From: Candidatus Micrarchaeia archaeon
Lineage (GTDB): Archaea; Micrarchaeota; Micrarchaeia; CABMEP01
NCBI GenBank assembly: GCA_038886535.1
Contig: JAVZXS010000003.1
Span: 1-64,000 of the forward strand
Length of the DNA: 64,000 nucleotides
Direction: 5' to 3'
The notes below the pieces were generated by a model. That model was not told where the DNA came from. It worked only from the letters and a program-made list of their open reading frames with translations, and searched no databases. Positions 2,549-27,379 of this stretch are shown piece by piece. Each line of letters opens with the position of its first letter. Position 1 is the stretch's first letter. A program made the position numbers and the translations under genes.

Positions 2549-5500
2549 ATGAGTTGTGATCCAAAAATAAACGCGTGTGGAATTCCAAATTTGAGCAGAT
2601 GGCTGAGTGCCATTTTAATAATGCTTATTTTTGTACAAAATATTTTTGCACAAACACCTATTTCTTCATGTCAAACAATAACCGCTAGCGGAAGCTATAT
2701 TTTAACGCAAGATATATTTGCATCAGATACTTGTTTAAGGATTGGAGCTGATAATGTTGTAATTGATTGTGGAGGGCATAAGATAATCGGTCCAGGAACA
2801 GAATCAAATACAAAAGGAATTGCTGGAGGTTGGGGCGTTCCAGGTTCAGCAGTCAATTCAGTTATAAAGAATTGTATCATTCAGAACTTTTCTTTTGGAA
2901 TCGATTTCCGTGGCTCAACAGGTGCAAATCCAACTTTGATAAACAACACATTAATCAATAACAAATACGGAGTATTTTATTCAAATATAGGTAGCTCACC
3001 ATTATTAATAAATTTAATAACTAATTGTACATTTACAAATAATACAAATGGAATCTATGTTCAATCTTCCTTCCCAAGATTTTATCAGAATAATATCTAT
3101 AATAACACACTAAATATCGTTTCTGATCAAGGTGGAGAGCTTTCTTACCAAGGTAAAGGAAACTGGTGGGGAAGGACGTCTTCTCCATATTTTATTGCTG
3201 GAGTAGATACGAATAGAATAGACCTAGTTGATAGCTATCCTTATTCAAATATGAATGGATGGGCAGTATTAGATTTAGATAATGATGGAATTGCTGATGA
3301 TATTGACAACTGCCCTCTAATTGCAAATCCAGATCAATCTGACATTGATGCAGACGGACTTGGAGATGTTTGTGATCCAGATGCAGATAATGATGGGATA
3401 GTGAATGAAATAGATAAGAATAGAATAACTGCAGAAGATCTTAGTCTAGTTCCATCTAATGATTTCAATGATCTTACAACTTTCGGTTACATCGCAGAAA
3501 AGGGAACCTGGAATGTTTCAATAATCGACTTACCTGCTCCTAATGGCGTAAGAGTTTCAATTTCTGGTAATGGAACAGGTAAAGTTAGAATAATCTCTTG
3601 TAACAATAACGTTGAAACAACTCTTGATCAAGAAGGAGAAACTGCAGATATTACATGTGGTAGCACTACTGTTTTTGCAGCTAATGCAAAGCCATTTATT
3701 GATGTTAGAAAGCCAGATTCTTCTGTAAAAGGAAAGGCAATAAAAGTCAAACTCAATTCAAACGACAAGGTAACGCTTGGAAGTCCGGTGTATGCATCAG
3801 AAAGCAATACCCAGCCAATAGAAGTCCAGATTGTGAATGAAGACGATTCTATCTATGCATATTTAATGCTTGAACCAGGTCAAAGAGTCGATATAGTTCC
3901 TCAAGATCCAGTGAGTGGAGAGCCTGTCATAACAAATCTTGCTCAAGTTCCAATAACAGTCTATTTTGTTGCATATGGGGTAAATACAACAATACAACCT
4001 GGAGAAACATTCACAGATTCACAACCACCAGCAACAACGTCCTCATATGAAGGTATTGTAGGCTTGAATGGTTGGTTCACATCCGATGTGCTAGTTTCTC
4101 TTTCAGCAACTGATGATGCATCTGGTGTTAAAGAGACATTCATTTGTGTTGATGCAAGCAATACATGTGATCCATTGCCAGGGGTATCTGCATCAATTAC
4201 AGAAGAAGGAACTTGGTATGTCAGATACTATTCAATAGACAATGCAGGAAAGGTTGAGCAGATACATTCAGATATTGTAAAGATAGATAAGACATCGCCA
4301 TCAATCACAATGAATGAGTTGCCAACATACGATTCAGATGGCAGTTATGTTGTCAGCTGGAATGCTTCTGATAATTTTGCAACCACATTTACATTTAATG
4401 TTTACAGGGATGGAGAGCTCTATCTGACAACAAATAACAATTCAATAACAGAATTGATTAAAACAGATGGAGAATCCCACAGCTATTTTGTTGAGGTAAT
4501 AGACTGGGCAGGTTTGAAGGCAATCTCAAATACAGTTTCAATTACGGTTGATCTTTCCGGCCCATCAACTCCTGTTCCATATCCATTACCTGTATTTACA
4601 AGAGTTCCATACGTTGATTTGATGTGGAACGCATCACAGGATATCCTAAGTGGAGTGAAGAGTTACAACATATTTAAGAATGGTCAGCTTTTAACCTCTT
4701 TATTATTTACTTCACTTTCCTATAGAGATATTATAGTAACTGAAGGAAATACTTACGAGTATCAGCTTTCAGCTGTTGACTGGGTTGGACATGAATCAAC
4801 GCTATCAGAAAAGGTTTCAACAACCATAGATACACAAGCCCCATCAACCTCAATTTCAATTGCAGGTATTAACGGATTGAATGGATGGTACACAAGTGAG
4901 GTAGGTGTTTCATTATCTGCAACAGATGAGACCTCTGGAGTAGCAAAGATAATTTACAGAATAGATAATGGGGAATGGATGCTTTATTCAGGTACATTCT
5001 CCATAGGAGAAGGAATTCACATAATTGATTATTACTCCGTCGACAATGCAGGAAACACTGAGCAGTGGAAGAGTGAAAGAATAAAGGTTGATAAGACAGC
5101 ACCAGTAAGCACTGACAACATTCCTGTAGGCTGGATTAATTACGACTTTAATGTTCAGATCTCAGCATCTGATAATCTAGCTGGCGTTGCATCAATATAT
5201 GCATGTTCAAGCCAGAGCGGCGATTGTGATCCAATTGCAAACAAAGCTTCATTCTGGCTGGGAGAAGGAATTCATATAATTAAATATTATGCAACAGACA
5301 AAGCAGGTAACATTGAATCTCTCAAAACTAAATATGCAAAGATAGATAAGACAGCACCAGTTACAATACCCTTAGAAACTGGAATAAAAGAAGAATCACC
5401 ATTTGATAATGTCTATAAGGACAAGGTTGTTGTTTCATTTACTGCAATCGATACTCTATCAAATATTGATGGAATATACTATTGTGTTGATGCAACTAAT

Positions 5501-10163: not shown

Positions 10164-12632
10164 AAGAGTATAAACGCAAAGAAATTGGCGGCTGTAACTC
10201 TTGGAGCAGCTCTCTTAGGCGCTTCATTCGTAGCAGCAGCACCAATTATGTATAAGAATACCCAGATAATAAATGAACAGGGTAAACCAGTAGTTAAAGT
10301 AGTAGTAGGTGCAAATGCAAAGGCATCTGATGGTGTTGCAGCAGCAAACATCGCAGCTGTCATTGGTAGCTTAGCATACAAGACACAAACTGTTTCTGCA
10401 CAGTTAACAGGAACTCCAACATGTTCTGTAACTGGAACAGGTTCTGGAACATGTCCAGTATCTGACAAGAAGGTTACATTGGAGATCACAACACCTGGAA
10501 CTGCAACAGTATCAGGAGGTTTCGGATTCAAGACATACGGATATGGTTTCATAGACAATGTCGGAACAACGGAAGATGATCAAGTTGCAAATTCTTCAGT
10601 TCCAAAGAAGATAACTGGAGACAACATGGCAGCACTTGCTGACTACAAGACATCAATCTCATCTGTTTCTGGTTCATTCACAGAGACACAAGAGATGTAT
10701 GTTGAACAAACATCAAACCCAGCTTTGTGGGATACAGACAAAGGCAAGTATTCAATACAACCAGATGAAATAAAGTATTTCATCAAATTTGATCATGACA
10801 CATTCGGAGGAGTTCCAGTATGTGTTAAGGAGAGCGAACTTGTATCAGGAAACTGCTCTGTTGACAACAAGATTGACAGACAGAGATTAAAGATCAAGTA
10901 CCTTGGTGAGGAATGGATAATCTCTGACATGACAAATGGTACATCTGTAAAGATTGCAAAAGAAGCAACACCAGCACAGATTGTTTATGCAGGTCAGGAA
11001 ATAGCAGCAGGTGCATACAAAGTTAAACTTGCTGACTTAACCATTCCATATGGTTCAACTGACTCACAAGCAATCGTACAAATATACGATGCAAATGGAA
11101 ATCTTGTGAAGGAAGATACTGCAGCAGCAGGTGCAACAAAGGAAATAACATTGCCAAATGGCGATAAGATTTCCTTACACATCTATAAGACTGCACCAGG
11201 TCTTACAACTGCAAAATGGGCAGAGATGGCAGTTTACACACAAGAACTCGAATTAAAGAATGGTCAAACAGTTGATGACGACAAGAACAAGAACTGGACA
11301 GTTACACTTGGTTGGAGCACATATTCTGGCAGCGCCATTACAAACGGTGTCTTAAAGAACATAACCCTGAAGAGAACATCATTTGACGATGTCTTTGAGG
11401 GAGAATCTGTGAACATAATCGAGTCACCTGCACCATACCAGTTCAAATTCTCTGGTTGGACATTGACAGATGCAAACAGAGATACCCTTAAAGTAGAATG
11501 GAAGAGAATATCCAGCTACTACTATCCATCAACAAACACAACAGCTGCCTCAATAGATGACTCTGATTCAAGAGACTTCATCTGTTTCACATCAGACAAG
11601 AAGGCATTTGGATCGAGCTTCACCTATACAAACATCTCCAACAGCTCACAGACACTTACTGGATCTTTGGAAGATGACAGAAGCCAAATTTGTTATGGAA
11701 TAAAAACTGGATATGTGATGTACGACAAGCCAGACAAGGGTTATGTGCTTGCGGCACAGATCAACTCTTCAAACAGCAGTGCATATGTTCAATTTGACTA
11801 CAAGATCAATGACGACTCTTCTTACGACCACAAATTGAACATTTCTGTTGTAGATGCAACAAAGGCAAACGTATCTATATACGAATACCTTTTGAAGAAT
11901 AAATCACAAAGTGGTTACTTCAAGTTTGTTGCAGATCAGCCAAACAGAAGGTTCGTAAACAATCCAACTGACAATTCTGAATCAAAGGTTAATGTTGGAT
12001 ATCTTGGCACATCTGGTACAATAACAACAGCAGAGAGAGAAGCTGGCTTTGTATCACAGAAGGGATCTGTGATTGCATCCAGATCAGCATCCTCAATAAC
12101 CTTCAAGATGGCAAAGAAACTTGGTGAATTCCAATACTTCTTAATGCCATCAACAAGCTCTGTTGAGGCAGGCACTCGAACAGAAAAATTGTCTGAAGGC
12201 CAGCAGGTCACTGTCCAGGAATCAACAGTGAAGGTTAAGGAGATCTCTGCAACAGTTGGAGCATGCACTGTAGCTGGTGGTTCTGCAGCATGCACAGCAT
12301 CAAGCGCAGGAATGTCTGCAGTTCTTGATGTAGCAGGAACACCTACATCTGCAACATTTGCAGTACCATACAAGATGAGCCCAACTGAGAGACTTGTTGT
12401 CCTTGACTCTGAGGCACCAACAGCTGAATCATTAATCCTTGTCGGTGGTCAGCTCGTCAACTCCTTGACAGCATCCGCAATAGCAGGCACTGATGTCAAG
12501 ATTGACAAGCCTGGAGTAAAGGTAGTCTCTGCAGTATCTGACAACAGAATAGTTGTTGCAGGTTACACAGCAGAAGACACACAACAGGCAGCAGCAGAGT
12601 TCATCTCACAATTATTGGCACAAGTCCAATAA
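10161..12632 (+). CDS. S-layer protein (S_layer_N/S_layer_C type)
   Basis: KKLAAVTLGAALLG signal; VVVGANA..DGVAAANIAA; C-terminal LILVGG..VN and IVVAGYTAEDT. Confidence 0.88.
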   Translation: MKSINAKKLAAVTLGAALLGASFVAAAPIMYKNTQIINEQGKPVVKVVVGANAKASDGVAAANIAAVIGSLAYKTQTVSAQLTGTPTCSVTGTGSGTCPVSDKKVTLEITTPGTATVSGGFGFKTYGYGFIDNVGTTEDDQVANSSVPKKITGDNMAALADYKTSISSVSGSFTETQEMYVEQTSNPALWDTDKGKYSIQPDEIKYFIKFDHDTFGGVPVCVKESELVSGNCSVDNKIDRQRLKIKYLGEEWIISDMTNGTSVKIAKEATPAQIVYAGQEIAAGAYKVKLADLTIPYGSTDSQAIVQIYDANGNLVKEDTAAAGATKEITLPNGDKISLHIYKTAPGLTTAKWAEMAVYTQELELKNGQTVDDDKNKNWTVTLGWSTYSGSAITNGVLKNITLKRTSFDDVFEGESVNIIESPAPYQFKFSGWTLTDANRDTLKVEWKRISSYYYPSTNTTAASIDDSDSRDFICFTSDKKAFGSSFTYTNISNSSQTLTGSLEDDRSQICYGIKTGYVMYDKPDKGYVLAAQINSSNSSAYVQFDYKINDDSSYDHKLNISVVDATKANVSIYEYLLKNKSQSGYFKFVADQPNRRFVNNPTDNSESKVNVGYLGTSGTITTAEREAGFVSQKGSVIASRSASSITFKMAKKLGEFQYFLMPSTSSVEAGTRTEKLSEGQQVTVQESTVKVKEISATVGACTVAGGSAACTASSAGMSAVLDVAGTPTSATFAVPYKMSPTERLVVLDSEAPTAESLILVGGQLVNSLTASAIAGTDVKIDKPGVKVVSAVSDNRIVVAGYTAEDTQQAAAEFISQLLAQVQ

Positions 12633-12650
12633 ATTCAGTGAGATAAGCTG

Positions 12651-12690
12651 TTGGATCGGCGGTTTATCCGCCAATTTTTTCTTTTTTATT
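12651..12690 (+). terminator. Hairpin plus U-tract terminator after the S-layer gene
   Basis: GGCGG-TTTAT-CCGCC then AATTTTTTCTTTTTT. Confidence 0.65.
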
Positions 12691-12856
12691 TTCTCTTCTT
12701 TTTTATATATTAAAAAATCATGTTAGTTCGTTTTTTATTTCAAAATTATATTAAATTTCATTCGAAAAATAGAGATTTTGAAATAGTTATATTTAAATAT
12801 ATTTTCATACAAATTCTTTTATTATTTATTGTAGCATTTAATAGGTAGGTGTACAA

Positions 12857-14914
12857 ATGGAATCGACAAAAAACAAGTTTGTATTATTTTTTATTTTATT
12901 AATCGCAGGAGTTTATTTCTCAATAAATGTAGAAGATTATTTATCCGTTTCTGAATCACCACTTTCAGTGGTGCAACAGAATTTTACATCTGGTTCTAAC
13001 AAATATACTATAGTAACTATAGCTTCTAAAGATTCTATGGTGTTGAAAAACGGACAAATCGTTAAAACTTTAGATGAGATAAAGGAAGTACTTAAATTAA
13101 GGTGCTTTGATACATCTTATCCTTCTAAGTCCAATCTTGAGTCAATAAAAGAAAAAGTCCTTGCATTTAATGCAAGCAGAAATGTTAAGACCTCCCTTGG
13201 AAACCTTGAAGAATTCTGCGATTCTATTACTGGACAAGGAGAAGGAGATGAAGGAGGATGTGTAGACTTAGTTTCTTGCCAAATAGCATGCAACAAGGGT
13301 TCTTATGCTTGTTTCCAGTATGGAGCAGGCAGTGCTCAATTTTTACCAGCATTATTAGAATATGCAAATATAAAGCGTGGAATTGATTCAAATTTGTCTT
13401 TGATATTGAACAACATTAATCAGTTAAATAGCATCTCAACTCCCACTCAGATTAATTTCCAACTTTCTTCAAAATTAAAAGAGATTTCAGATTCGATTCT
13501 TCTTTTACAGGATCTTGCTAGTAGTTATGTGAACAATAAATTATTTACAAGACCTACTTTCAATTTCTGTATTCCTGTTGGATATACAATGTCATTAAAC
13601 ACTTCAGCTCTATCTTCAGCAGCATCTATTGCGTCTCAACTAAGATCAAATGCAGCATGCTTTGACAACATTGATTCAAATGCTCAATCCATATACAATG
13701 AAACGTTCCGCAGAATAGAACTATACACTAGTACAAAGGCAAAGGCAAATCTTCAGAAGGAATTTGATTCTATTTCAACAAGATATAATTATCTTTTGGA
13801 CAAAGCTACGAATATATTGGAGGTAGTTGAAGACTCAAACTTAAATGATTATATTTCAAATATTGATTCCTTAAATCAGCAATTCTATTCAAATCTAAAT
13901 AGAAATGAAATAGACCAGGCAGGATATGTAGTCAGTGTAATAAAAACTAAATTGGATGAAATGGACAACTATATGTCAACAACTTATTCAGTTTTTGATC
14001 AGCTTTCAGTAAATAAGGAAAGCGCAGCCAAGCTCCTAGAAAAAGCATCAGTTATAATAACCCCTTCCGATAATGTATTCTATTCAGAACTTACCACTCT
14101 CAACAATGAATACTTAAGCCTTAATAAAAAACTAAGTGGGAAGGTAGTATATGAAGAAATTGGTAATTATGCAAACCGATATGGAAAGTTAGCAGAAAAT
14201 CTTGATTCTCTAATTCAAAGAAAGAAAGAGGCAGCAACAGAGACAGTTCCTTCTGCCCTTGCTTCTCCGCTCAATAGCTTGGCAGTGGGAGTTCTTGATG
14301 CTGCATCAGCACCATTAGGTATAAAGGAAGAAGAAAAAAGAATATGGGCACAAAATATACCTTTGATAGTAATTGTAGGAATTGATATTATTGTATTAGC
14401 TATATTCGGATTAGCATTTTTCTTCCTTGTTTTAAGGAATACATCTGCATTTGGAAAGGCAAAGATAATGAACACGTGGATATTGATATTTGCAGCAGTA
14501 ATCATCTTGCTTGCATTATTGTCTTATGCACTATATACTGGAATAAGCAATGAGATTTCATCGACATCAATTTATAATTTCATCTCTGCAGCTGAAAAAT
14601 CAAACAAGGTTTACATATTTGCTGAATATCTCTCTTCTCAAGATTCCACGAAGATAAAGAGCTGTGCAGACAAGATTGCAGCACAGTTTTACGGAAAGGG
14701 AATTGAAGTGGAGCAAATAGATGTAGTAGATGGAATATGCAAGGACAGACTTCTTTCAGAGTGTATGGCAGAAACAGATAAAATACCATTGATTCAGCTT
14801 TCATATTCAAATGAAACACAGACTAAATTCTATACATTTTACAGAGCCGAAGGTCTTATTCAAGGAGATGAAGCATATTTCGATAGATGCAGTATATCAG
14901 AATTTATAGAATAA
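12857..14914 (+). CDS. Hypothetical membrane protein (Cys-rich and coiled-coil ectodomain, 2 TM, C-terminal 4-Cys domain)
   Basis: 685-aa ORF with SD GGTAGGTG, N-terminal hydrophobic segment, two TM helices near aa 500-565. Confidence 0.75.
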   Translation: MESTKNKFVLFFILLIAGVYFSINVEDYLSVSESPLSVVQQNFTSGSNKYTIVTIASKDSMVLKNGQIVKTLDEIKEVLKLRCFDTSYPSKSNLESIKEKVLAFNASRNVKTSLGNLEEFCDSITGQGEGDEGGCVDLVSCQIACNKGSYACFQYGAGSAQFLPALLEYANIKRGIDSNLSLILNNINQLNSISTPTQINFQLSSKLKEISDSILLLQDLASSYVNNKLFTRPTFNFCIPVGYTMSLNTSALSSAASIASQLRSNAACFDNIDSNAQSIYNETFRRIELYTSTKAKANLQKEFDSISTRYNYLLDKATNILEVVEDSNLNDYISNIDSLNQQFYSNLNRNEIDQAGYVVSVIKTKLDEMDNYMSTTYSVFDQLSVNKESAAKLLEKASVIITPSDNVFYSELTTLNNEYLSLNKKLSGKVVYEEIGNYANRYGKLAENLDSLIQRKKEAATETVPSALASPLNSLAVGVLDAASAPLGIKEEEKRIWAQNIPLIVIVGIDIIVLAIFGLAFFFLVLRNTSAFGKAKIMNTWILIFAAVIILLALLSYALYTGISNEISSTSIYNFISAAEKSNKVYIFAEYLSSQDSTKIKSCADKIAAQFYGKGIEVEQIDVVDGICKDRLLSECMAETDKIPLIQLSYSNETQTKFYTFYRAEGLIQGDEAYFDRCSISEFIE

Positions 14915-14943
14915 TTCTATGGGTATACTTTTACGGTGGTTCA

Positions 14944-15585
14944 ATGGCAATTAAAAAGTTAGGGAAGGAATCTGAAAAGCATAGAATTGCATCAGATGAA
15001 AGAAAATCTGGAACAGCTTCCGAAAGAAGAAGAAACGATCTTCTTTTCCTTGGGTTTGCATTGCTTGTCATATTCATCGTTCTTTTCTGGGTTCTTCAGA
15101 CACCACCTCAGCAAGTAAACACGCAAACAAACAGCACAATGAGAGGAAATATAGAGCAATTCAAGGAATCTTTGCTTAATGCAGAAGGAATCATAATAAT
15201 AGATAAGGTTACGGGCCTTTCAAGCGAAAAAGCAAGATACGTTTATGCATGCGGAGCAGGTCTTGCAGGAAGCTGGGGCAAGATCGGGAAGGACATATCC
15301 AATCTATACACATTTGTAATAGACGGAGAGGAATGCACATACAGCAGTCCTAGAATAATAAACAACGAACTCTCTCATGAGTCTACAGCCACAAACACTA
15401 ACGAATGCATTAAGAAGATAAAAGAGATGCAGAAGAATCCACTTTATGTGACATTTGAAATCAATTATGGTCCACTATATTCAATTTATGAGACACATGC
15501 AGCCTATCTGTTCGTGAACGAAGACTTTGTTGAAGAATGCTCTTTCAGGACTTCAGAAACAGTGCCTACAATCACTGGACAGTAA
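14944..15585 (+). CDS. Hypothetical single-pass membrane protein with 4-Cys domain
   Basis: Basic N-terminus, TM helix; GGTGG SD before ATG 14944. Confidence 0.75.
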   Translation: MAIKKLGKESEKHRIASDERKSGTASERRRNDLLFLGFALLVIFIVLFWVLQTPPQQVNTQTNSTMRGNIEQFKESLLNAEGIIIIDKVTGLSSEKARYVYACGAGLAGSWGKIGKDISNLYTFVIDGEECTYSSPRIINNELSHESTATNTNECIKKIKEMQKNPLYVTFEINYGPLYSIYETHAAYLFVNEDFVEECSFRTSETVPTITGQ

Positions 15586-15633: not shown

Positions 15634-18384
15634 TCATTTGTATCTAAGCAATCCGCCTATTCCTTTGAATCCTGCTAAAAACTGCTTTCCTTCCGGACTG
15701 TCTTCAGGAATCAATTCCACTTCTATTCCATGCTTCTCCGCTTTCTCATAAGCTTCATCAAACAACTCTTCCTTGCTTATTATGTTCTTAATCTTGCTTC
15801 CATTGCTGCACCTGAGTTCTCTTTCTTCTTTTTCTTCTATTTCGCCGTCTATAAATATTTCTTCTTGTCCTGAATCGCATTCTACGATAAGATGGGTAAT
15901 ATCTAATCCTTCAGAAAGCAACAAAGTTCCTAATTTACCAGAGTTCATTGCTTCTATTGTTTCTTTAGGCCCATAAACTGCAAGACCGCCCTTTGCAACT
16001 TCTCCGAAAAATCTTTCAAGAAGCTGCCTTTGCTTCTTTGCCTTCTCCTCAGAAATCAAATCAACTGCTTTTCGTGCAAGCTCTTGAATCCCATAATCGT
16101 CAACATAACCAGTATCAAGGACAGCTAAGATCTGAAATTGATAATTGAAAGGTTTCATTTTCAAAAAGTTTTCTTTCACAGGCCCAGGTCCGCCCACTAT
16201 AACTTTCTTAATTCCAGATGGTATAAGCGTTTCATTCATTGCATCTCCAACTCTCCTATAATAATCTTCTACAAGCTCTTCCACAAAACGTTGATACCTG
16301 GCCGCACTGTTGTGAACTATTATTCCATTGACTACAAAATTTTCAGTCTCGGGTACTGAAAGATCATAAAAATATTCATTTGGGTTTTGTATTTTTTCTA
16401 TCCTAATAATTTTTGGATACACAGCTTCATATTCTAGAGTTCTTTTTAAATATTCTAATATTGCAATGCCATGTTGATATACTTTTTCATCTTGATTTTG
16501 TTTATATTTCATTTCTTTTTTTATCGCATTTTCAAAATAAGGTAAAACTTTTTCCATAAATACTTTTCGAGACATTCGTTTTTTATCTGCAAAAAACATG
16601 TTAATATTTGGGAAGTCTCTTGTGTTTAGACCTAATTCTCTGGCCAAAGCAATTACTTCTTTTCCGCTTACAGATATCTGTCGTATATTATCAGCTCTTT
16701 TTTTCGTTATTCTATTACATTTCTCATCTTTAGAGATAGAGGAGAATCCGATTCTATTTTTAAATATATTTATTGAATCTAAGTCATTTATTTCTAGGAA
16801 CCAAACTCCAATCTGATCTGTTTTTTTCCAATACACCGAACTTATTATTCCAAATCTAAGGAGCGCATATCTTAACTTTTCAATTATATTTCTACTTCGC
16901 ATTCCTATTCCTATCCTGTTTGTGACAAATCCTTCAGCGTCAAAAAGTCCGCTAATAAATGCAGCTAATAGATTATCAGGCAATTTTATGATGTCATTAG
17001 GTATATCCCGTAAATTACTTTTTGCTATTAATTCAGGATATTTATTCTCAATTTCGTCACTTAGCCATTTGCTGTATATTCTTAACTCGTATAAATTTTT
17101 CTTTTTGCATTTTCTAATCTTAGTTTTCAATCCAAACTCAATTTCACATATTTTAGAATAAATTTCCAGATTTTCTTTATCTCGATCATATAAAATTATT
17201 CGGTTATTATCTTTTGTTCCATCTCCAGCTATGTATCCAAAAAGTCGACAAATTCCTTCTGTATAATAAGATGGAATAGCAATTATCTTATCTTTTGGAA
17301 TTAATTTTGTATCGAGCTTATAATATTCAAGAATCTTAGGTAAGATCTTGCTATCTTCCATCTTTCGTTTTCCAAGTTCTAAGCTTGATATTGTTGTTTG
17401 ACTAATTCCTAAATCATCTGCCACTCTTTTCTGAGTTAGATTAAGTTCTTTTCTTCTTTGTCTTAGAATTTCTCTTAATTTGCTATCTAATTTGTAAACT
17501 TCTTTTATTTCAAGCGGTAACTCTGTTTCTTTTCCTTTTATTTCAAAATTAGATATGTGAATAAGTCTATCTCCGACTTTTAATTCATCTACATATTTTT
17601 CCCTGATAGAATTCTCAGTTTCTTTCACAAAGAACAAGTGTTCAGGAGTTGCTATTATTTCTGTTCTAGGATGTTTCGTAATTATTTTATATGCAATATT
17701 AGTTTTTCTTTTCATAACTCTATTGCAAGTTGAGAATTTATATCTTTGTTGAGTAAAATCATAACTAAGCACTCTGTCGCCTTCTCTTACTTGTGATATT
17801 GGTATGATCATTCCATTTTCTAACTGAACCATTCCATCTTCTCTTATGCATGATCCACCTTTTGTTGACTTACTAGGTCCGGTTGTAGTAAGTCGTTTTA
17901 ATATCTTTGTAACATTTCCTTCAAGCACTCCAATTGTTGCTTCCTTTCCATCTATTGTAATCAATCCATACTTTTCCTTAACTTTACCCTGTTCTGCAAG
18001 TGGCTCTAAAATAAATTCAGAATCGCATCTGTAAATACTCACCTGAATAGGAAGCGGCGGCTCAATAGAAAAGAGCTGTATGTCTGTTTTTCCTGGATCC
18101 TTTGATATATTCCCACAGAATATTGCCAATCCTTTGTCTGGGGTTTTCCTAAAGAACTTAAGATAATTGATTATCTTGTCGATTGCATCTTGGACGTTTG
18201 TTCTTGTTGTTTTTGATTTAATGTTTCCTGCCTGCCCATGCTCAGATCGTAATTTATTAACTACCTCAGTTAATGGATATCCAGCAGGAACATATAGACT
18301 TATTAGCTCTGTTCCACTGCCTCTTATCTTTCCAAGCTTGTTTAGCAGTTTCATTAATTCTCTTTTTTTCTTATCCGCAGCCAT
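15634..18384 (-). CDS. prf1: Peptide chain release factor aRF1, intein-containing
   Basis: GTELISLYVP, NIKS, YRCDSEF, C-terminal GFKGIGGLLRY; 402 aa after intein removal. Confidence 0.95.
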   Translation of the reverse strand: MAADKKKRELMKLLNKLGKIRGSGTELISLYVPAGYPLTEVVNKLRSEHGQAGNIKSKTTRTNVQDAIDKIINYLKFFRKTPDKGLAIFCGNISKDPGKTDIQLFSIEPPLPIQVSIYRCDSEFILEPLAEQGKVKEKYGLITIDGKEATIGVLEGNVTKILKRLTTTGPSKSTKGGSCIREDGMVQLENGMIIPISQVREGDRVLSYDFTQQRYKFSTCNRVMKRKTNIAYKIITKHPRTEIIATPEHLFFVKETENSIREKYVDELKVGDRLIHISNFEIKGKETELPLEIKEVYKLDSKLREILRQRRKELNLTQKRVADDLGISQTTISSLELGKRKMEDSKILPKILEYYKLDTKLIPKDKIIAIPSYYTEGICRLFGYIAGDGTKDNNRIILYDRDKENLEIYSKICEIEFGLKTKIRKCKKKNLYELRIYSKWLSDEIENKYPELIAKSNLRDIPNDIIKLPDNLLAAFISGLFDAEGFVTNRIGIGMRSRNIIEKLRYALLRFGIISSVYWKKTDQIGVWFLEINDLDSINIFKNRIGFSSISKDEKCNRITKKRADNIRQISVSGKEVIALARELGLNTRDFPNINMFFADKKRMSRKVFMEKVLPYFENAIKKEMKYKQNQDEKVYQHGIAILEYLKRTLEYEAVYPKIIRIEKIQNPNEYFYDLSVPETENFVVNGIIVHNSAARYQRFVEELVEDYYRRVGDAMNETLIPSGIKKVIVGGPGPVKENFLKMKPFNYQFQILAVLDTGYVDDYGIQELARKAVDLISEEKAKKQRQLLERFFGEVAKGGLAVYGPKETIEAMNSGKLGTLLLSEGLDITHLIVECDSGQEEIFIDGEIEEKEERELRCSNGSKIKNIISKEELFDEAYEKAEKHGIEVELIPEDSPEGKQFLAGFKGIGGLLRYK
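16309..17850 (-). mobile_element. Intein (514 aa) with LAGLIDADG endonuclease and XRE-type HTH
   Basis: Starts CIREDGMVQLENG; block B ATPEHLFF; LFGYIAGDG and FISGLFDAEG; ends YDLSVPETENFVVNGIIVHN, +1 Ser. Confidence 0.95.
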
Positions 18385-22068: not shown

Positions 22069-22529
22069 TCATTCCACCTTTACGATCCTTACTCCTGCTT
22101 CCTTGAAAAGTTTGAATGCCTCCTTATCGGGATAATCTCCCTTGTATCTTACCTCTTTTATTCCTGCGTTTATTATCATCTTCGCGCATATCCTGCAAGG
22201 AGGAGTGTTAACATATAGAATCGAATTATTGGAAGATACGCCATGATATGCACATTGTATTATTGCATTCTGCTCTGCATGAACCGCTCTGCATATCTCA
22301 TGTCTTGTTCCGCTCTCTATTTTTAACTTATCTCTTAAACATCCCTCTTCAAGGCAATCCGGCATCTTCTTTGGTGCTCCATTATATCCTGTAGAAAGTA
22401 TTTGATTATCTTTGATGATTACCCTATCTTTCTTCTTCTGCAAGTAGCTCTAGTTGCAACATCATCGCATATTCTCATAAAGTATTCATCTAAGCTCGGT
22501 CTTTTCAACTTTTCAGATTTCTTTTCCAT
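22069..22529 (-). pseudogene. dCMP deaminase family, frameshifted near 22422
   Basis: MEKK..RPSLDEYFMRICDDVATRATCRRRKIG* in one frame; VIIKDNQILSTGYNG..HAEQN..PCRIC in another. Confidence 0.8.
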
Positions 22530-22630
22530 CTTATTACATTATAACATCAATTTAATTCCTTATATACCTTTACATCCCCCACTTAGAGTAATGTTTATAT
22601 TATTATCAAATGTTAATATATTTAGAGAAT

Positions 22631-23833
22631 ATGGATATGGCTAGCTTAAGGAAAATAAATATAAATGCAAAAGAATTAGACGGAGTTTTAAACAATCTTG
22701 AGTTATCAAAGGATCAAAAAAATCAAATTAAAAAAAGTTTACAGGAATTAAGCAAAAATCTTAATCTTCAGCAAAGAGATGATCTTAATTCTTTGTTTCA
22801 GACTTATTATAAAAAATCAGATTCTAAGTTTATTTCCCATCTTAAGGAGGCAGTAAACAATGATTTTTCAAAAATCAAATCAGATCTTTCCGAATTTGCT
22901 AATTCTAATCTAACGAAGATAAAAGCGATTAATGCATTTGAAAAGAACATCAATCTCAATAAGTTTAATTCAGTCACTTCAGAGTTGACTATACAAGCTA
23001 TAAATGAAATTAATTCTAGATTTTCTGATTTTATTTCTATACATATGAATGGAACGAATGTTTCTGCTTCTTTGAATGTTATTAATTTAATCAGATTATC
23101 CCCACAAGATGTTCAATCAAAAAAATTAGGGAAGGTTCCTGTAAGTTCTATTGTTAAGGTATTTGAAAATAACAATATAAACAAAATAAATGTAAATAAA
23201 CAAATCATCGAAGGTTTTAGAAGCAAATCAATAATGGATCAATCAAGTGCATTAAATAAGGCACTTGGAGAAGAAGTAATCAATCCTGTAAAGGACGTTA
23301 ATGATGCAGTAAATCTTATTGCTTCTTCCTTCTGTAAGTCGAGGCCTCGTGATGCAATTTCTGAGGAAGAGACATCAGGAAGAAGCTCAATTTTATTTAC
23401 CAAAGGTCCAACTGCCTCTACAGGGATTATCGAAGCTTATAATTTTAATATGGGTTTAAAATACATGCCACTAAATGGAGCCGGTGTGCAATCATCTTTG
23501 TCAGGTTCTATCGTTAAATTCAATTTTTCAAAGCAAACTCACATACAGAAAGGTCTTGATTTAACAGCAAATTTCTCTATTGGTGCAGCATTTGTAAAGG
23601 GAGGTGCTTCTCTGGTTATCGGTGATTACAGCGAAAAATTATATTCTTTAGATAAGATTATTCCAGTTGCATCAGCAGAAGTAGGATTCAATTATAATTT
23701 CAACAAAGATGTTTTATTTAGATCTACTGTTTCTTTTGTTCCTGGTGTAAATACATCATTTGAAAATAATAAATTTAAATTTACACCTAAAGTGCAGAAT
23801 AGTGTGTCTGCATCAATTTCAGTCAAAATATAA
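22631..23833 (+). CDS. Hypothetical protein: helical N-part, beta-barrel-like C-terminal domain
   Basis: About 400-aa ORF; amphipathic strands such as ASAEVGFNYNFNKDVLFRSTVSF. Confidence 0.7.
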   Translation: MDMASLRKININAKELDGVLNNLELSKDQKNQIKKSLQELSKNLNLQQRDDLNSLFQTYYKKSDSKFISHLKEAVNNDFSKIKSDLSEFANSNLTKIKAINAFEKNINLNKFNSVTSELTIQAINEINSRFSDFISIHMNGTNVSASLNVINLIRLSPQDVQSKKLGKVPVSSIVKVFENNNINKINVNKQIIEGFRSKSIMDQSSALNKALGEEVINPVKDVNDAVNLIASSFCKSRPRDAISEEETSGRSSILFTKGPTASTGIIEAYNFNMGLKYMPLNGAGVQSSLSGSIVKFNFSKQTHIQKGLDLTANFSIGAAFVKGGASLVIGDYSEKLYSLDKIIPVASAEVGFNYNFNKDVLFRSTVSFVPGVNTSFENNKFKFTPKVQNSVSASISVKI

Positions 23834-23876
23834 AAAAAAGAATAAAAATTAAAAAGAACAAATAGATGCATTGGTT

Positions 23877-25514
23877 TTAGTATTCTCCTCCGCCCATTCC
23901 ACCTGTGCCTCCAGATCCTCCAGATGAAATTGGCTTTGGTTTTGCACTTATCATATCGCTAATTCTTAGCAACATTTCTGCAGCCTCACTTGCAGACATT
24001 ATTGCCTGTTCCTTAACCTTTGCAGGTTCGATTACACCAAGTTTCTCCATGTTGTCTATTTTTCCATCATAGACATTAACTCCATATACGAGGCCATCCT
24101 TGTTATTGTGCTTTGACCTCAATGATACAAGTGTATCTATTGCATCCATTCCTGCACTCTCTGCAAGTGTTCTTGGAATTACTTCAAGTGCATCTGCAAA
24201 TGCAAGTATTGCAAGCTGCTCCCTTCCTCCTATCTTATTTGCATATTCTCTGAGGTCCTTTGCCAACTCGATTTCTGTTGCTCCTCCACCAAATACATAT
24301 TTTCCTTCCTCAATAGCAGAGGAAACTGCACCTATGGCATCTTTAATTGCCCTTTCTCCCTCGTTGACAACATGGTCTGTTGATGCTCTTACTAGTATTG
24401 TTACTGATTTAGGATCTTTGCACTTTTCAACAAATACCATTGCCTCTCCACCAATCTTTCTTTCCTCTATAAGTCCAGCATGTCCAAGATCTTTTGGTGA
24501 AAGGTCATTCAGGATTGTAACTATTCTTGCTCCTGTTGCTCTTGCAAGCTTCTCCATATCGCTTCTCTTTACTCTTCTTACTGCCACAATTCCTTTCTTT
24601 GCAAGATAGTGTTGTGCAACATCATCTATTCCTTTTTGACAGAATACAACGTTCGCTCCGCTCTTCTCTATTTTTTCAACCATTTCCTTAAGCATTTTTT
24701 CTTCTTGCTCAAGGAATGCAGTCAACTGAGAAGGATCAGTTATTTCGATCTTCGCATCTGTTTCAGTTTTCTCAATTTCTAGAGAGGTGTCAAGCAATGC
24801 GATTTTTGCATTCTCAACTTTCTTCGGCATTGCGGGATGCACTATCTCTTTATCAATTAAAACTCCATTTATAAGTGTGGTGTCATCAATTGACCCGCCT
24901 GCCTTTTTCTCTATTTTTATTAAATCTTGATCAATCACAAGTTTGCCATCCTTCTGTTCTGCAACTTGTGTAACTGCATCTACTACAATCTTTGCAAGGT
25001 GGTCTTTTGATTCACCCACTCCTACTGATTTTGATCCCATTGAAATAGAAGCTATATTGTAAAGTACTTTTGTATCTTTGATGGTTACTGGCTTTGATAT
25101 CTCTTTTACTCTTGCTATTGCTCTTGTTGCAGCAAGCTTGTAACCTCTAAGTATTGTAGATGAATGAATATCTTTGTCAAGTAAATCTTCTGCCCCTTTA
25201 AGTAATTCACCAGCTAACACAACAGAGGTAGTGGTTCCATCACCAACTTCCTTATCTTGTGTTTTTGCAACCTCTACAAGAATCTTAGCTGCAGGATGGT
25301 CTGTATTCATTTCAGTCAAAATCGTTGCTCCGTCATTAGTTATTACGATGTCTCCGAGCTCCGATACCAGCATTACATCGCTTCCCCTAGGACCAAGTGT
25401 TTTCTTTACTATTTCTCCAACTGCTCTTCCAACTACAATCATAATTCTCTGTGCATCTCTTCCTACAGTTCTTGAACTTCCCTCTGGAAGTATCATATTT
25501 TGTGAATTCGCCAT
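23877..25514 (-). CDS. ths: Thermosome (group II chaperonin) subunit
   Basis: [23 protein letters not shown] tail. Confidence 0.97.
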
Positions 25515-25657
25515 ATTTTCACCCCTAAAATTAATTATATATTAAAACGACAATTGTTTTAACAAATAGAGCAATCCTATTAAATAAAATATAGATGTCT
25601 ATATTTATAATATTTGTATAGAAAAATTTAAGAAGTTTAAATATCTATAATTCAACT

Positions 25658-26404
25658 TTATCTTTTTAATTTAAGTGCAAATTCAGTAACAGATTTGTAT
25701 ACTTCCTTTGCACCAAGCTTCTTTAAGACTGCTCTTTCAGTACTTCCTGACATGATTCCAATAGGAATGCAACCTGCAGCCTTTGCAGCAATTATATCAG
25801 CTTCGCTGTCCCCTAAGTAATATGTTTCACTTGGTTTTAATCCTAATTTCTTACATGCTTTTAGTATCATTTCAGGAGATGGCTTTGGCTGAGATGCATC
25901 TTCAGATGTAATCACAGTTTCAAAAATATTTATTACATCTCTGTCTTGCATCCATACTTGGTTGTATTCTCTTTTTGCATTAGTTACTACGCCTAATTTA
26001 AAACCAGAATCCTTAAGTAATTTAGCACCTTTTTTACCTGCTCTTACAGGAGGTATACGCCTAAAAACTTTAGGGTCAGTAAGAGTTTTATTGTATGCGT
26101 AATGCATTTTTTCGAAATCTTCTTTACTTATGGGGGTTTTTTTCATCAATTCTTTTACATATTCAACAGGATATTTTTTCCATAAAATTCGTGTTATATC
26201 TTCTCCATTTTTAGCGATTGCATAGAGAGCTTTTAAGAATTCATCTTGATGATTCAATTCAGCAAAACCCCTTAACTTCCATGTTGCGGCAGGGTAGGAA
26301 TTCAATTTAAGTCCAACTGCCTCTAACGCTTTTTCGTATGCGTGATGAAATGCATTTTTGGAGTCCCTAATGACTCCTTCCATGTCAAGGAGGATTCCCT
26401 TCAT
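25658..26404 (-). CDS. HAD-family hydrolase
   Basis: LLDMEGVI, VTN, KPSP, GDSEADI. Confidence 0.85.
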   Translation of the reverse strand: MKGILLDMEGVIRDSKNAFHHAYEKALEAVGLKLNSYPAATWKLRGFAELNHQDEFLKALYAIAKNGEDITRILWKKYPVEYVKELMKKTPISKEDFEKMHYAYNKTLTDPKVFRRIPPVRAGKKGAKLLKDSGFKLGVVTNAKREYNQVWMQDRDVINIFETVITSEDASQPKPSPEMILKACKKLGLKPSETYYLGDSEADIIAAKAAGCIPIGIMSGSTERAVLKKLGAKEVYKSVTEFALKLKR

Positions 26405-26623
26405 GTGAACACTTTTTTGTTATTTTTCTTTATATTGTATATTCATAGGTTATTTATAAATGTTTTGTTTTACATTTTTGTTGAATTCTTTAATTATAAG
26501 GATCATCTTTATAATATTCAAGCATCAGTATAAAGGAAATAGATCAAAATTTACAACTAAAATAGTTAAAGTATATTCGTTTTATTCCTATTTATTTTTA
26601 AATTTTTATTCTTATTTTATTGC

Positions 26624-27379
26624 ATGAAAATAATTTTTTTAGGTACTGGCGGTGGAAGAATAAATGTTACGTATAGATTTAGGTCCACATCTGGATTTCT
26701 AATTCAAGGTTCAAAACAGATTTATGTAGACCCAGGTCCCGGGGTGATTCCTGATGCAAAAAAACACAAGATTAAACTTAACAAAATAGATGCAGTATTT
26801 GTTTCACATCCACATCTGGATCATGCAAACGACATGAACGTGTTAATTGAGGCTATGACATACGCAACATCAAAGAAAAGAGGTATTCTTTTCGGACCAG
26901 AAACCTTATTTAAAAAAGAGCTCGAATTCGGTGTTTCTCTTTCAAAGTATCATGCAAATCTTCTAGATGCGTATTACAAAATGAAACCAAACGAAAATAT
27001 AGACTTAGGTTCCTTTTCAATAAAAGCAACAAAAGCAAAACACGATAACACAAAAGGAATCGGATTTGTTTTAGAAATGGATGGAAAAAGAATAGGATAT
27101 ACGGGAGATACAGAATATTTTGAAGGAATTTCTGACAGTTATAAAGATTTAGATCTTTTAATAATTAATGTTCTACGTGCGCAAGAAAAATGGGAAGGAC
27201 ATCTTGACAAGTATTCGTGTCTTTCACTTTTGAAAGAGACAAAGCCAAAGATTGCAATCCTTACAAGATTCGGAGGAGAATACCTAAAAACAAAAGCAGA
27301 AGATGTTGCAAAATGGCTTCAAAAAGAAAGCAAAGTCAAGGTAATCGCATCTTATGATGGGATGGAATTTGAGTTCTAA
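26624..27379 (+). CDS. MBL-fold metallo-hydrolase
   Basis: FLGTGGG, VDPGPG, SHPHLDH, YTGDT. Confidence 0.9.
   Translation: MKIIFLGTGGGRINVTYRFRSTSGFLIQGSKQIYVDPGPGVIPDAKKHKIKLNKIDAVFVSHPHLDHANDMNVLIEAMTYATSKKRGILFGPETLFKKELEFGVSLSKYHANLLDAYYKMKPNENIDLGSFSIKATKAKHDNTKGIGFVLEMDGKRIGYTGDTEYFEGISDSYKDLDLLIINVLRAQEKWEGHLDKYSCLSLLKETKPKIAILTRFGGEYLKTKAEDVAKWLQKESKVKVIASYDGMEFEF

Follow-up and report, generated by a model that had tools for sequence, protein, structure and literature searches.

An intein with a LAGLIDADG homing endonuclease in the catalytic loop of an archaeal release factor that reads GGS in place of GGQ

The stretch of DNA analysed here (the window) comprises 64,000 nucleotides (nt) from a Candidatus Micrarchaeia archaeon (GTDB lineage Archaea; Micrarchaeota; Micrarchaeia; CABMEP01) and corresponds to positions 1 to 64,000 of the forward strand of contig JAVZXS010000003.1 in the NCBI GenBank assembly GCA_038886535.1. 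The source genome is 1.14 Mb long, lies on 40 contigs and is 88% complete, and the sequencing runs containing the sequence are labelled as hot-spring metagenomes. On its reverse strand the window carries the gene for the translation release factor aRF1, the catalytic loop of which is interrupted by an intein. The gene, its two flanking host segments (exteins) and the parts of the intein are as follows, in window coordinates.

15634..18384, minus strand: open reading frame (ORF) of the aRF1 precursor, 916 amino acids (aa), with eRF1_1, eRF1_2 and eRF1_3 domains; stop codon at 15634-15636
17851..18384, minus strand: N-extein, aa 1-178, with the C-terminal end ...PSKSTKGGS
17851..17874, minus strand: probable co-conversion tract, 24 nt, eight codons S-K-S-T-K-G-G-S, every wobble position differing from the three closest intein-free alleles
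17851..17853, minus strand: codon TCA of Ser178, the -1 residue of the intein, in the column of the catalytic Gln (from junction DNA and alignment)
16309..17850, minus strand: intein, 514 aa, precursor aa 179-692
17497..17850, minus strand: N-terminal lobe of the Hint domain, intein aa 1 to about 118, with Cys1 (block A) and TPEH (block B, His71); beta strands 7-119 in the structural model
17305..17472, minus strand: helix-turn-helix (HTH) domain of the HTH_3/HTH_19 kind, intein aa about 127-182 (precursor aa 305-360); helices 123-176 in the model
16711..17268, minus strand: two-motif LAGLIDADG endonuclease core, intein aa about 195-380; motif 1 ...GYIAGDG (Asp210), motif 2 ...GLFDAEG (Glu306)
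16426..16710, minus strand: helical stretch, intein aa about 381-475, that follows the endonuclease core and precedes the C-terminal Hint lobe; helices 396-472, predicted local distance difference test (pLDDT) mostly 75-95
16309..16425, minus strand: C-terminal Hint lobe with blocks F and G, Asp496 and the terminal His513-Asn514
15634..16308, minus strand: C-extein, aa 693-916 and the stop codon; first residues SAARYQRF, with Ser at +1

A preliminary description, made from the sequence alone, had placed a 514-aa intein with Cys1, a His-Asn end and a +1 Ser at 16309..17850, between KGGS and SAARY, and the junction DNA, the Pfam domains and collinear intein-free orthologues agree with it exactly, at a level that chance does not come near. 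The N-terminal junction reads ...AAA GGT GGA TCA / TGC ATA AGA..., with the break at 17851-17853 / 17850-17848 (K-G-G-S / C-I-R-E-D-G in the protein), and the C-terminal junction reads ...GTT CAC AAC / AGT GCG GCC AGG TAT..., with the break at 16311-16309 / 16308-16306 (I-V-H-N / S-A-A-R-Y). The exteins match eRF1_1, eRF1_2 and eRF1_3 (PF03463, PF03464 and PF03465, at 9e-20, 5.5e-20 and 7.5e-21) in that order and all above cut-offs, and domain 2 is the one that the intein splits into two halves. The 916-codon ORF is free of interruptions, and the host protein keeps the stop-recognition motifs NIKS (AGNIKSK) and YxCxxxF (YRCDSEF), the Gly-Gly pair and the downstream RxxR. Compared with intein-free aRF1 proteins, the N-extein is 97-98% identical to those of four relatives (G001, G003, G005 and G006) and 81% to that of a fifth (G004), and the C-extein 92-98% and 77%, respectively. 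The element is thus, as described, a homing-endonuclease intein in the catalytic loop of aRF1, right behind the third residue of the GGQ position. The residue had been called GGQ-equivalent; what had been overlooked is its identity, which is Ser (codon TCA) instead of Gln.

The insert has the anatomy of a class-1 intein. Pfam finds Intein_splicing (1.4e-25), LAGLIDADG_3 (PF14528, 3.9e-20, in two stretches), HTH_19 (2.1e-11) and Hint (4.1e-9), and the match to PF14890 reaches 90.4 bits (cut-off 35.8). Cys1 (TGC, 17850-17848), TxxH, the block F Asp, the terminal His-Asn and the +1 Ser (AGT, 16308-16306) are all present, and each of the two LAGLIDADG motifs has its catalytic acidic residue. When the intein was aligned with 27 other aRF1 inteins (31-55% identical), C1, H71, G209, D210, D304, A305, E306, D496, H513 and N514 were invariant in all 28, and the +1 Ser was nearly so among the 28 intein-bearing proteins. 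An AlphaFold2 model built on this alignment has a pLDDT of 92.9 and a predicted template-modelling score of 0.89; its best Foldseek matches are the inteins TliVMA (7qss, 7e-23), PI-PfuI (1dq3, 4e-20), PI-TkoII (2cw7), PhoVMA and PI-SceI; free LAGLIDADG enzymes, I-DmoI and I-Tsp061I among them, come next. By sequence, the best PDB match of the intein is likewise PI-PfuI (1dq3, 1.7e-14), and its HTH part matches the small HTH proteins 8tac and 8bny. The insert therefore looks like an ordinary, intact class-1 intein with a LAGLIDADG homing endonuclease and an HTH DNA-binding domain, and is probably active. Four more intein-bearing ORFs lie elsewhere in the genome (contig C2, about 10837-15312, 22465-26646, 117698-122317 and 232883-237241; 1008, 950, 1681 and 1078 aa).

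A release factor had been thought an unusual host for an intein, and this part of the preliminary description finds no support in the frequency with which the site is occupied. With the intein alignment as query, 54 of the 80 best loci in species-representative genomes have an intein at the same aRF1 site, the other 26 being other hosts or unresolved by the search pattern; by their titles, the 54 loci come from Micrarchaeota, Aenigmatarchaeota, Woesearchaeota, Nanoarchaeota, Iainarchaeum/Diapherotrites, Thaumarchaeota/Nitrososphaerales, Nanohalobium and others. A scan of genome contigs with the single intein sequence as query confirmed no relative. Among metagenome loci the site is occupied in 48 of 80, by a regular-expression count that runs low (it has a single Ser, where L231 as well as L232 has GGS). 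Finally, we surveyed the best 150 representatives of 50%-identity clusters with an intein-free aRF1 as query; the motif could be located in 119, leaving 31 rows unscored and four scored rows clearly mislocated, and at least 43 of the 150 have an intein directly behind GGX. The insertion site is thus widely occupied in sequence data, yet a search of open-access papers and bioRxiv preprints, with InBase outside its range, found no paper on an aRF1 intein. The main text and two of the three supplementary files of Novikova et al. 2016 (PMC4760082) list aIF2/IF2 as translation-factor intein hosts and mention neither a release factor nor COG1503. The aRF1 intein thus adds a new member to a kind already known, and its family is plentiful in sequence data although no description of it was found.

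Within its own order, by contrast with this wide occurrence, the intein is rare. The reference set for the order comprises 10 genomes, nine of which have an aRF1 gene (none was seen in G002, which is 54% complete), and the intein is carried by one of the nine. The other eight genes, five from the same genus, two from the same family and one from the same order, are collinear and read KGGSSAARY over the insertion site; a second, partial aRF1 copy in the relative G006 is likewise intein-free. The same-genus exteins are 77-98% identical to those of the host in protein, and the three closest intein-free alleles are 90.5-96.7% identical per extein in nucleotides. Against this background the 24 nt immediately upstream of the insertion stand out, with every wobble position of eight consecutive codons differing from the three closest alleles; by our own arithmetic, in which about 30 of the 178 N-extein codons differ, such a run has a chance of about 1e-6 at one given place. 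The first four codons 3′ of the insertion hold one to three further differences, with the amino acids unchanged. The last four codons of the tract are AAA GGT GGA TCA, exactly as in L232, a metagenome allele that carries an intein 53% identical to this one; in the intein-free alleles of the genus they read AAG GGG GGG TCC. The simplest reading of the wobble run is that the flank was co-converted as the intein was copied from a diverged donor, and the intein looks to have entered this single aRF1 gene recently, by homing. Full-length relatives of the intein (P0001 and P0002, 53% identical) and mini-inteins (P0027 and P0041) were found in other GGS hosts, and the lineage therefore circulates in the clade. 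The intein-bearing allele and the intein-free alleles with exteins 98% identical in protein form a natural pair for a homing assay.

The altered catalytic motif is a property of the whole order and not only of the gene with the intein. All nine aRF1 genes of the order have Ser in the Gln column, reading KGGS-SAARY at equal length to the KGGQSAARY found elsewhere, whereas all 50 aRF1 genes from other orders of the class read GGQ (51 genomes, one without a match). The Ser is encoded in six ways across the order (TCA, TCC, TCG, TCT, AGC and AGT), so it has been kept through many synonymous changes; these cross from one Ser codon family to the other (TCN and AGY), which suggests that Ser itself has been selected. 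Codon differences from two relatives are overwhelmingly synonymous (45 synonymous against 6 amino-acid-changing for L016, and 166 against 20 for L019), indicating that the aRF1 gene is under strong purifying selection. The protein lacks the catalytic GGQ that defines aRF1; judged by its place in the tree and by 41-67% identity to the GGQ aRF1 of other orders, it is an aRF1 orthologue by descent, with an altered catalytic motif.

The replacement extends beyond this order. GGS occurs in 34 of the 120 closest 90%-identity clusters, and a FastTree phylogeny of 128 uninterrupted sequences (a quick tree without an outgroup test, from which intein-bearing and truncated rows were omitted) places GGS in two separate, well-supported clades: one of 23 rows that includes this order, and one of 7 rows that is sister to 15 GGQ rows. 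This arrangement calls for at least two changes. For the second clade (the P0072 group), no close genome was found among 401 genomes of the class, the best identity being 56%. Elsewhere we found GGW, GGM, GGF, GGI and GGA, in intein-bearing and uninterrupted genes alike; the uninterrupted cluster representatives are P0152, P0156, P0269 and P0271 (GGW), P0195 (GGF), P0272 (GGM) and P0211 (GGA). In five GGW or GGM genomes (by title, four Aenigmatarchaeota and one Woesearchaeota), no GGQ aRF1 was found. The Aenigmatarchaeota bin G063 (the genome of L136) has an intein-bearing and an intein-free aRF1 (L177 and L182) on separate contigs, both GGM, reflecting either strain heterogeneity or two copies. 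Among open-access papers and bioRxiv preprints we found none on the loss of the GGQ glutamine in archaea, DPANN lineages included. The relevant passages of Atkinson 2008 (PMC2613156) describe GGQ as universally conserved in e/aRF1, and those of Burroughs and Aravind 2019 (PMC6514570) take Gln as the mark of the active family and call families without it inactive.

The enzyme that modifies this Gln was not found in the order either. The archaeal HemK-related family TIGR00537, which we take to be Mtq2, gives matches over the cut-off in 42 of 51 genomes from the rest of the class and in 0 of the order's 10, and a tblastn search of the source genome with the Mtq2 proteins of five relatives yielded no credible match, reaching at best E = 0.001 over 45 aa. 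Among ten Aenigmatarchaeota and Woesearchaeota genomes that have no completeness estimate (G061-G070), none of the five with GGW or GGM has a match over the cut-off, and of the five GGQ Aenigmatarchaeota three do, with one more at 79 bits against a cut-off of 87. That Mtq2 was not found in the GGS order agrees with the loss of Gln, short of proof. In Haloferax volcanii, Mtq2-Trm112 methylates the Gln of the aRF1 GGQ, and the same part of that paper gives Mtq2 orthologues in all archaea and GGQ as universally conserved (van Tran et al. 2018, PMC6144793); methylation of GGQ is described there and in Atkinson 2008 as conserved in all three domains of life, and the motif itself as essential to every class-I release factor (PMC2613156, PMC6144793). 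A separate observation is contrary to the published presence of Mtq2 in all archaea: the GGQ Micrarchaeia genomes G014, G016, G017, G019, G034, G044, G046, G049 and G060, which are 91-98% complete, have no over-cut-off match either.

Several lines of evidence bear on whether the GGS protein is the working release factor. A PF03464 search of the source genome and the order returned only aRF1 and Pelota, one of each per genome, with the exceptions that G002 (54% complete) has no aRF1 and G009 no Pelota. The bacterial RF-1 domain PF00472 is found in none of the 10 genomes, and PF18859 (the acVLRF1 profile) matches only aRF1 itself, with no separate VLRF1-type gene. All three stop codons are in use, ending 678 long ORFs as TAA (411), TGA (175) and TAG (92). 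As a possible sign of weak termination we considered tandem in-frame stops, and discarded it; behind the 678 ORFs these are not enriched over the other two frames. In bacterial release factors it is the backbone amide at the Gln position, and not the side chain, that contributes most to catalysis. The main role of the side chain is to select water, and with the exception of Pro most replacements leave much of the activity in place; the structural and kinetic work on these factors reportedly includes that of Shaw and Green in 2007. On this basis we infer that the GGS aRF1 would still release peptides.

We also looked to the ribosome for a compensating change, by aligning the 3′ part (about 1400 nt) of the 23S ribosomal RNA (rRNA) from eight genomes of the order with that from 19 GGQ genomes, and rejected this candidate. 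Ten differences are fixed between the order and its GGQ relatives, none of them in the anchored stretches of the peptidyl-transferase centre, which are the same in both groups; the core has no order-specific change. Three features of the 23S genes are recorded in their own right, in the coordinates of the locus L197 (contig C1 of the source genome). One of the ten fixed differences, at 2739, is a G-to-A change (8 of 8 in the order against the 19 GGQ genomes) where the P-loop hairpin has just passed its GGGGC (GGCUGGGGC-A-GU against -G-GU), which may turn U-G into U-A in the closing pair; a link to GGS would be pure speculation. At 3240-3254, 26 of 27 Micrarchaeia 23S genes, GGS and GGQ alike, read UCGCU(G/A)UCG where the Rfam archaeal consensus, in a stretch that is highly conserved, is UCGAUGUCgG. 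The A-to-C position is presumably E. coli A2503, at the tunnel entrance beside the peptidyl-transferase centre. At about 3050-3147, an insertion of about 100 nt interrupts the central-loop sequence (GGGGGUAA ^ AACAGG) in 7 of 8 genes of the order (all of family f1, not G009) and, judged by the flanking letters only, probably also in G030. An rRNA intron and an expansion are both possible explanations; cmscan accommodated the insertion as an insert of 165 nt against 23 positions of the model.

Putting the locus together, we consider it likely that a recent homing intein, probably active, sits in a single aRF1 that reads GGS, at a site widely occupied in DPANN and other archaea. As to the motif, we lean towards the view that several small-genome archaeal lineages have dispensed with both Gln and Mtq2 and terminate at all three stops with a single GGS, GGW or GGM aRF1; these lineages would be this order and the second Micrarchaeota clade (GGS) and the Aenigmatarchaeota and Woesearchaeota (GGW and GGM, with GGF, GGI and GGA in metagenome proteins). 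A bolder possibility starts from the dependence of intein splicing on the -1 residue: the repeated arrival of inteins at this exact site may have contributed to the replacement, by driving or permitting it. In the cluster survey the residue is not Gln in 10 of 43 sequences behind inteins and in 7 of 72 uninterrupted genes, counts that are not independent and carry no statistical test. A number of points weigh against this account. An over-cut-off Mtq2 match is also missing from nine of the class's 51 GGQ genomes, so Mtq2 loss is not specific to Gln loss. The order is a single lineage, and its 0 of 10 counts as one event. Every genome used is a metagenome bin, with a completeness of 54-94% within the order, so that 'not found' differs from 'absent'. 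Published mutagenesis, as represented in passages of PMC6514570 and PMC2613156, treats GGQ as essential. At the locus itself, the flank pattern could in principle have a cause other than co-conversion, and no Logan contig bridged the N-terminal junction (contigs only were compared, and those other than the one at the C-terminal junction are short pieces).

The alternative that survives best, although we think it unlikely, is that the GGS aRF1 is catalytically dead in the manner of Pelota, serving only to recognise stops or to recruit ABCE1, with release left to an unrecognised factor or to one supplied by a host cell. Micrarchaeota are reduced, host-dependent cells (episymbionts), and the literature, in the passages cited above, takes Gln as the catalytic residue and Gln-less families as inactive (PMC6514570, PMC2613156). 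Neither another gene of the aeRF1 superfamily nor one with a bacterial RF-1 domain is found in the 10 genomes of the order, however, and a dead factor sits poorly with the retention of NIKS, YxCxxxF, Gly-Gly and RxxR under strong purifying selection and with a Ser preserved through a change of codon family. Mutating this Gln in human eRF1 is also said, in the title of a report by Seit-Nebi from 2000, not to abolish activity completely. An aRF1 that releases peptides with Ser in place of Gln is the reading we prefer.

How would such a factor be made from the interrupted gene? We infer that the precursor would splice itself along the class-1 pathway: Cys1 would attack the carbonyl of Ser178, the chain would pass to the +1 Ser and Asn514 would cyclise, giving a 402-aa aRF1 that reads KGGS-SAARY, and the freed intein would cut intein-less alleles. 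The mature release factor should need splicing, because no other aRF1-type gene was found in the 88%-complete genome. The preliminary description had proposed that termination depends on splicing, which this absence supports by inference, and had gone on to suggest a conditional switch, which the distribution of the intein speaks against. Such a domesticated element, its splicing gated by an environmental cue so as to regulate release-factor supply and termination, strikes us as distinctly improbable. Conditional splicing is known for some archaeal inteins, and splicing would be obligatory for function where the intein sits in the only aRF1 gene. That inteins are functionally important has been argued by Novikova et al. 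2016 (PMC4760082). A regulatory intein should, however, be fixed in its lineage, and this one is absent from eight of the nine aRF1 genes of the order, including all five of the genus, and looks recently acquired; its endonuclease residues are intact and its flank looks co-converted, marking it as mobile rather than fixed, and no extein Cys is visible near the junction for a disulfide trap. Missing from every sister genome and with its nuclease intact, the intein is best seen as behaving like a parasite; none of the results points to regulation, and the dependence of termination on splicing would be merely a by-product of a selfish element.

Two further alternatives fare worse. That the intein is decaying, neither splicing nor homing, in a gene that is a recent pseudogene of the bin is hardly credible: nothing specific speaks for it beyond the room that an 88%-complete genome leaves for a second copy, and the uninterrupted ORF, the presence of every invariant splicing and nuclease residue and the confident model all speak against it. 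Least credible of all is a chimera in which the assembler joined another organism's intein into the contig, for although the data are metagenomic and the guanine-cytosine content of the intein (28.9%) differs from that of the exteins (37-39%), the value is no outlier against the genome average of 33%, the frame is continuous, homologous inteins occupy the identical site in many genomes, and a Logan contig that spans the C-terminal junction agrees with the window over 15634-17216 with 0 differences, although it may derive from the source sample.

The preferred reading, a recent and probably active homing intein in a working GGS release factor, matters in two ways. The intein is useful to record, as one more representative of a large family that is aimed at the aRF1 catalytic loop and has apparently not been published. 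And an order that appears to rely solely on a GGS release factor and to lack Mtq2 would be a natural experiment on a long-standing question, the role of the Gln side chain and its methyl group; if the reading is true, peptide release in vivo can do without that side chain.

Set beside known systems, the intein shares with PI-PfuI (the P. furiosus RNR intein, 1dq3) and with TliVMA/PhoVMA (7qss, 7qst) a class-1 Hint domain with an inserted two-motif LAGLIDADG endonuclease, and differs from them in host protein and site, at a sequence identity of only 14-20%; its XRE-type HTH domain matched separate HTH proteins and not those inteins. Like the aIF2/IF2 inteins listed in the main text of PMC4760082 it resides in a core archaeal translation factor, although a different one. 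Its nearest kin are the inteins of the aRF1 GGQ site in DPANN and other archaea, with the same insertion point (GGX / S), block residues and type of endonuclease, a family in which mini-intein derivatives exist; this copy sits behind Ser and not Gln, as do its closest relatives (P0001, P0002, L231 and L232; 53% identical), which are likewise in GGS hosts. The host protein resembles the canonical aRF1/eRF1, such as that of H. volcanii, in its three domains, NIKS, YxCxxxF and Gly-Gly, in being single copy and in a genome that uses all three stop codons, and departs from it in that Gln is replaced by Ser throughout the order and the Mtq2 family was not found. With Pelota/Dom34 it shares membership of the aeRF1 superfamily without the catalytic Gln; Pelota/Dom34, however, lacks the whole GGQ loop, NIKS and YxCxxxF, as set out in a passage of Atkinson 2008 (PMC2613156), whereas the host aRF1 keeps all but the Gln. 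On its sequence, then, the GGS aRF1 is a new variant of the release factor, one that departs from the most famous defining feature of the aRF1 family.

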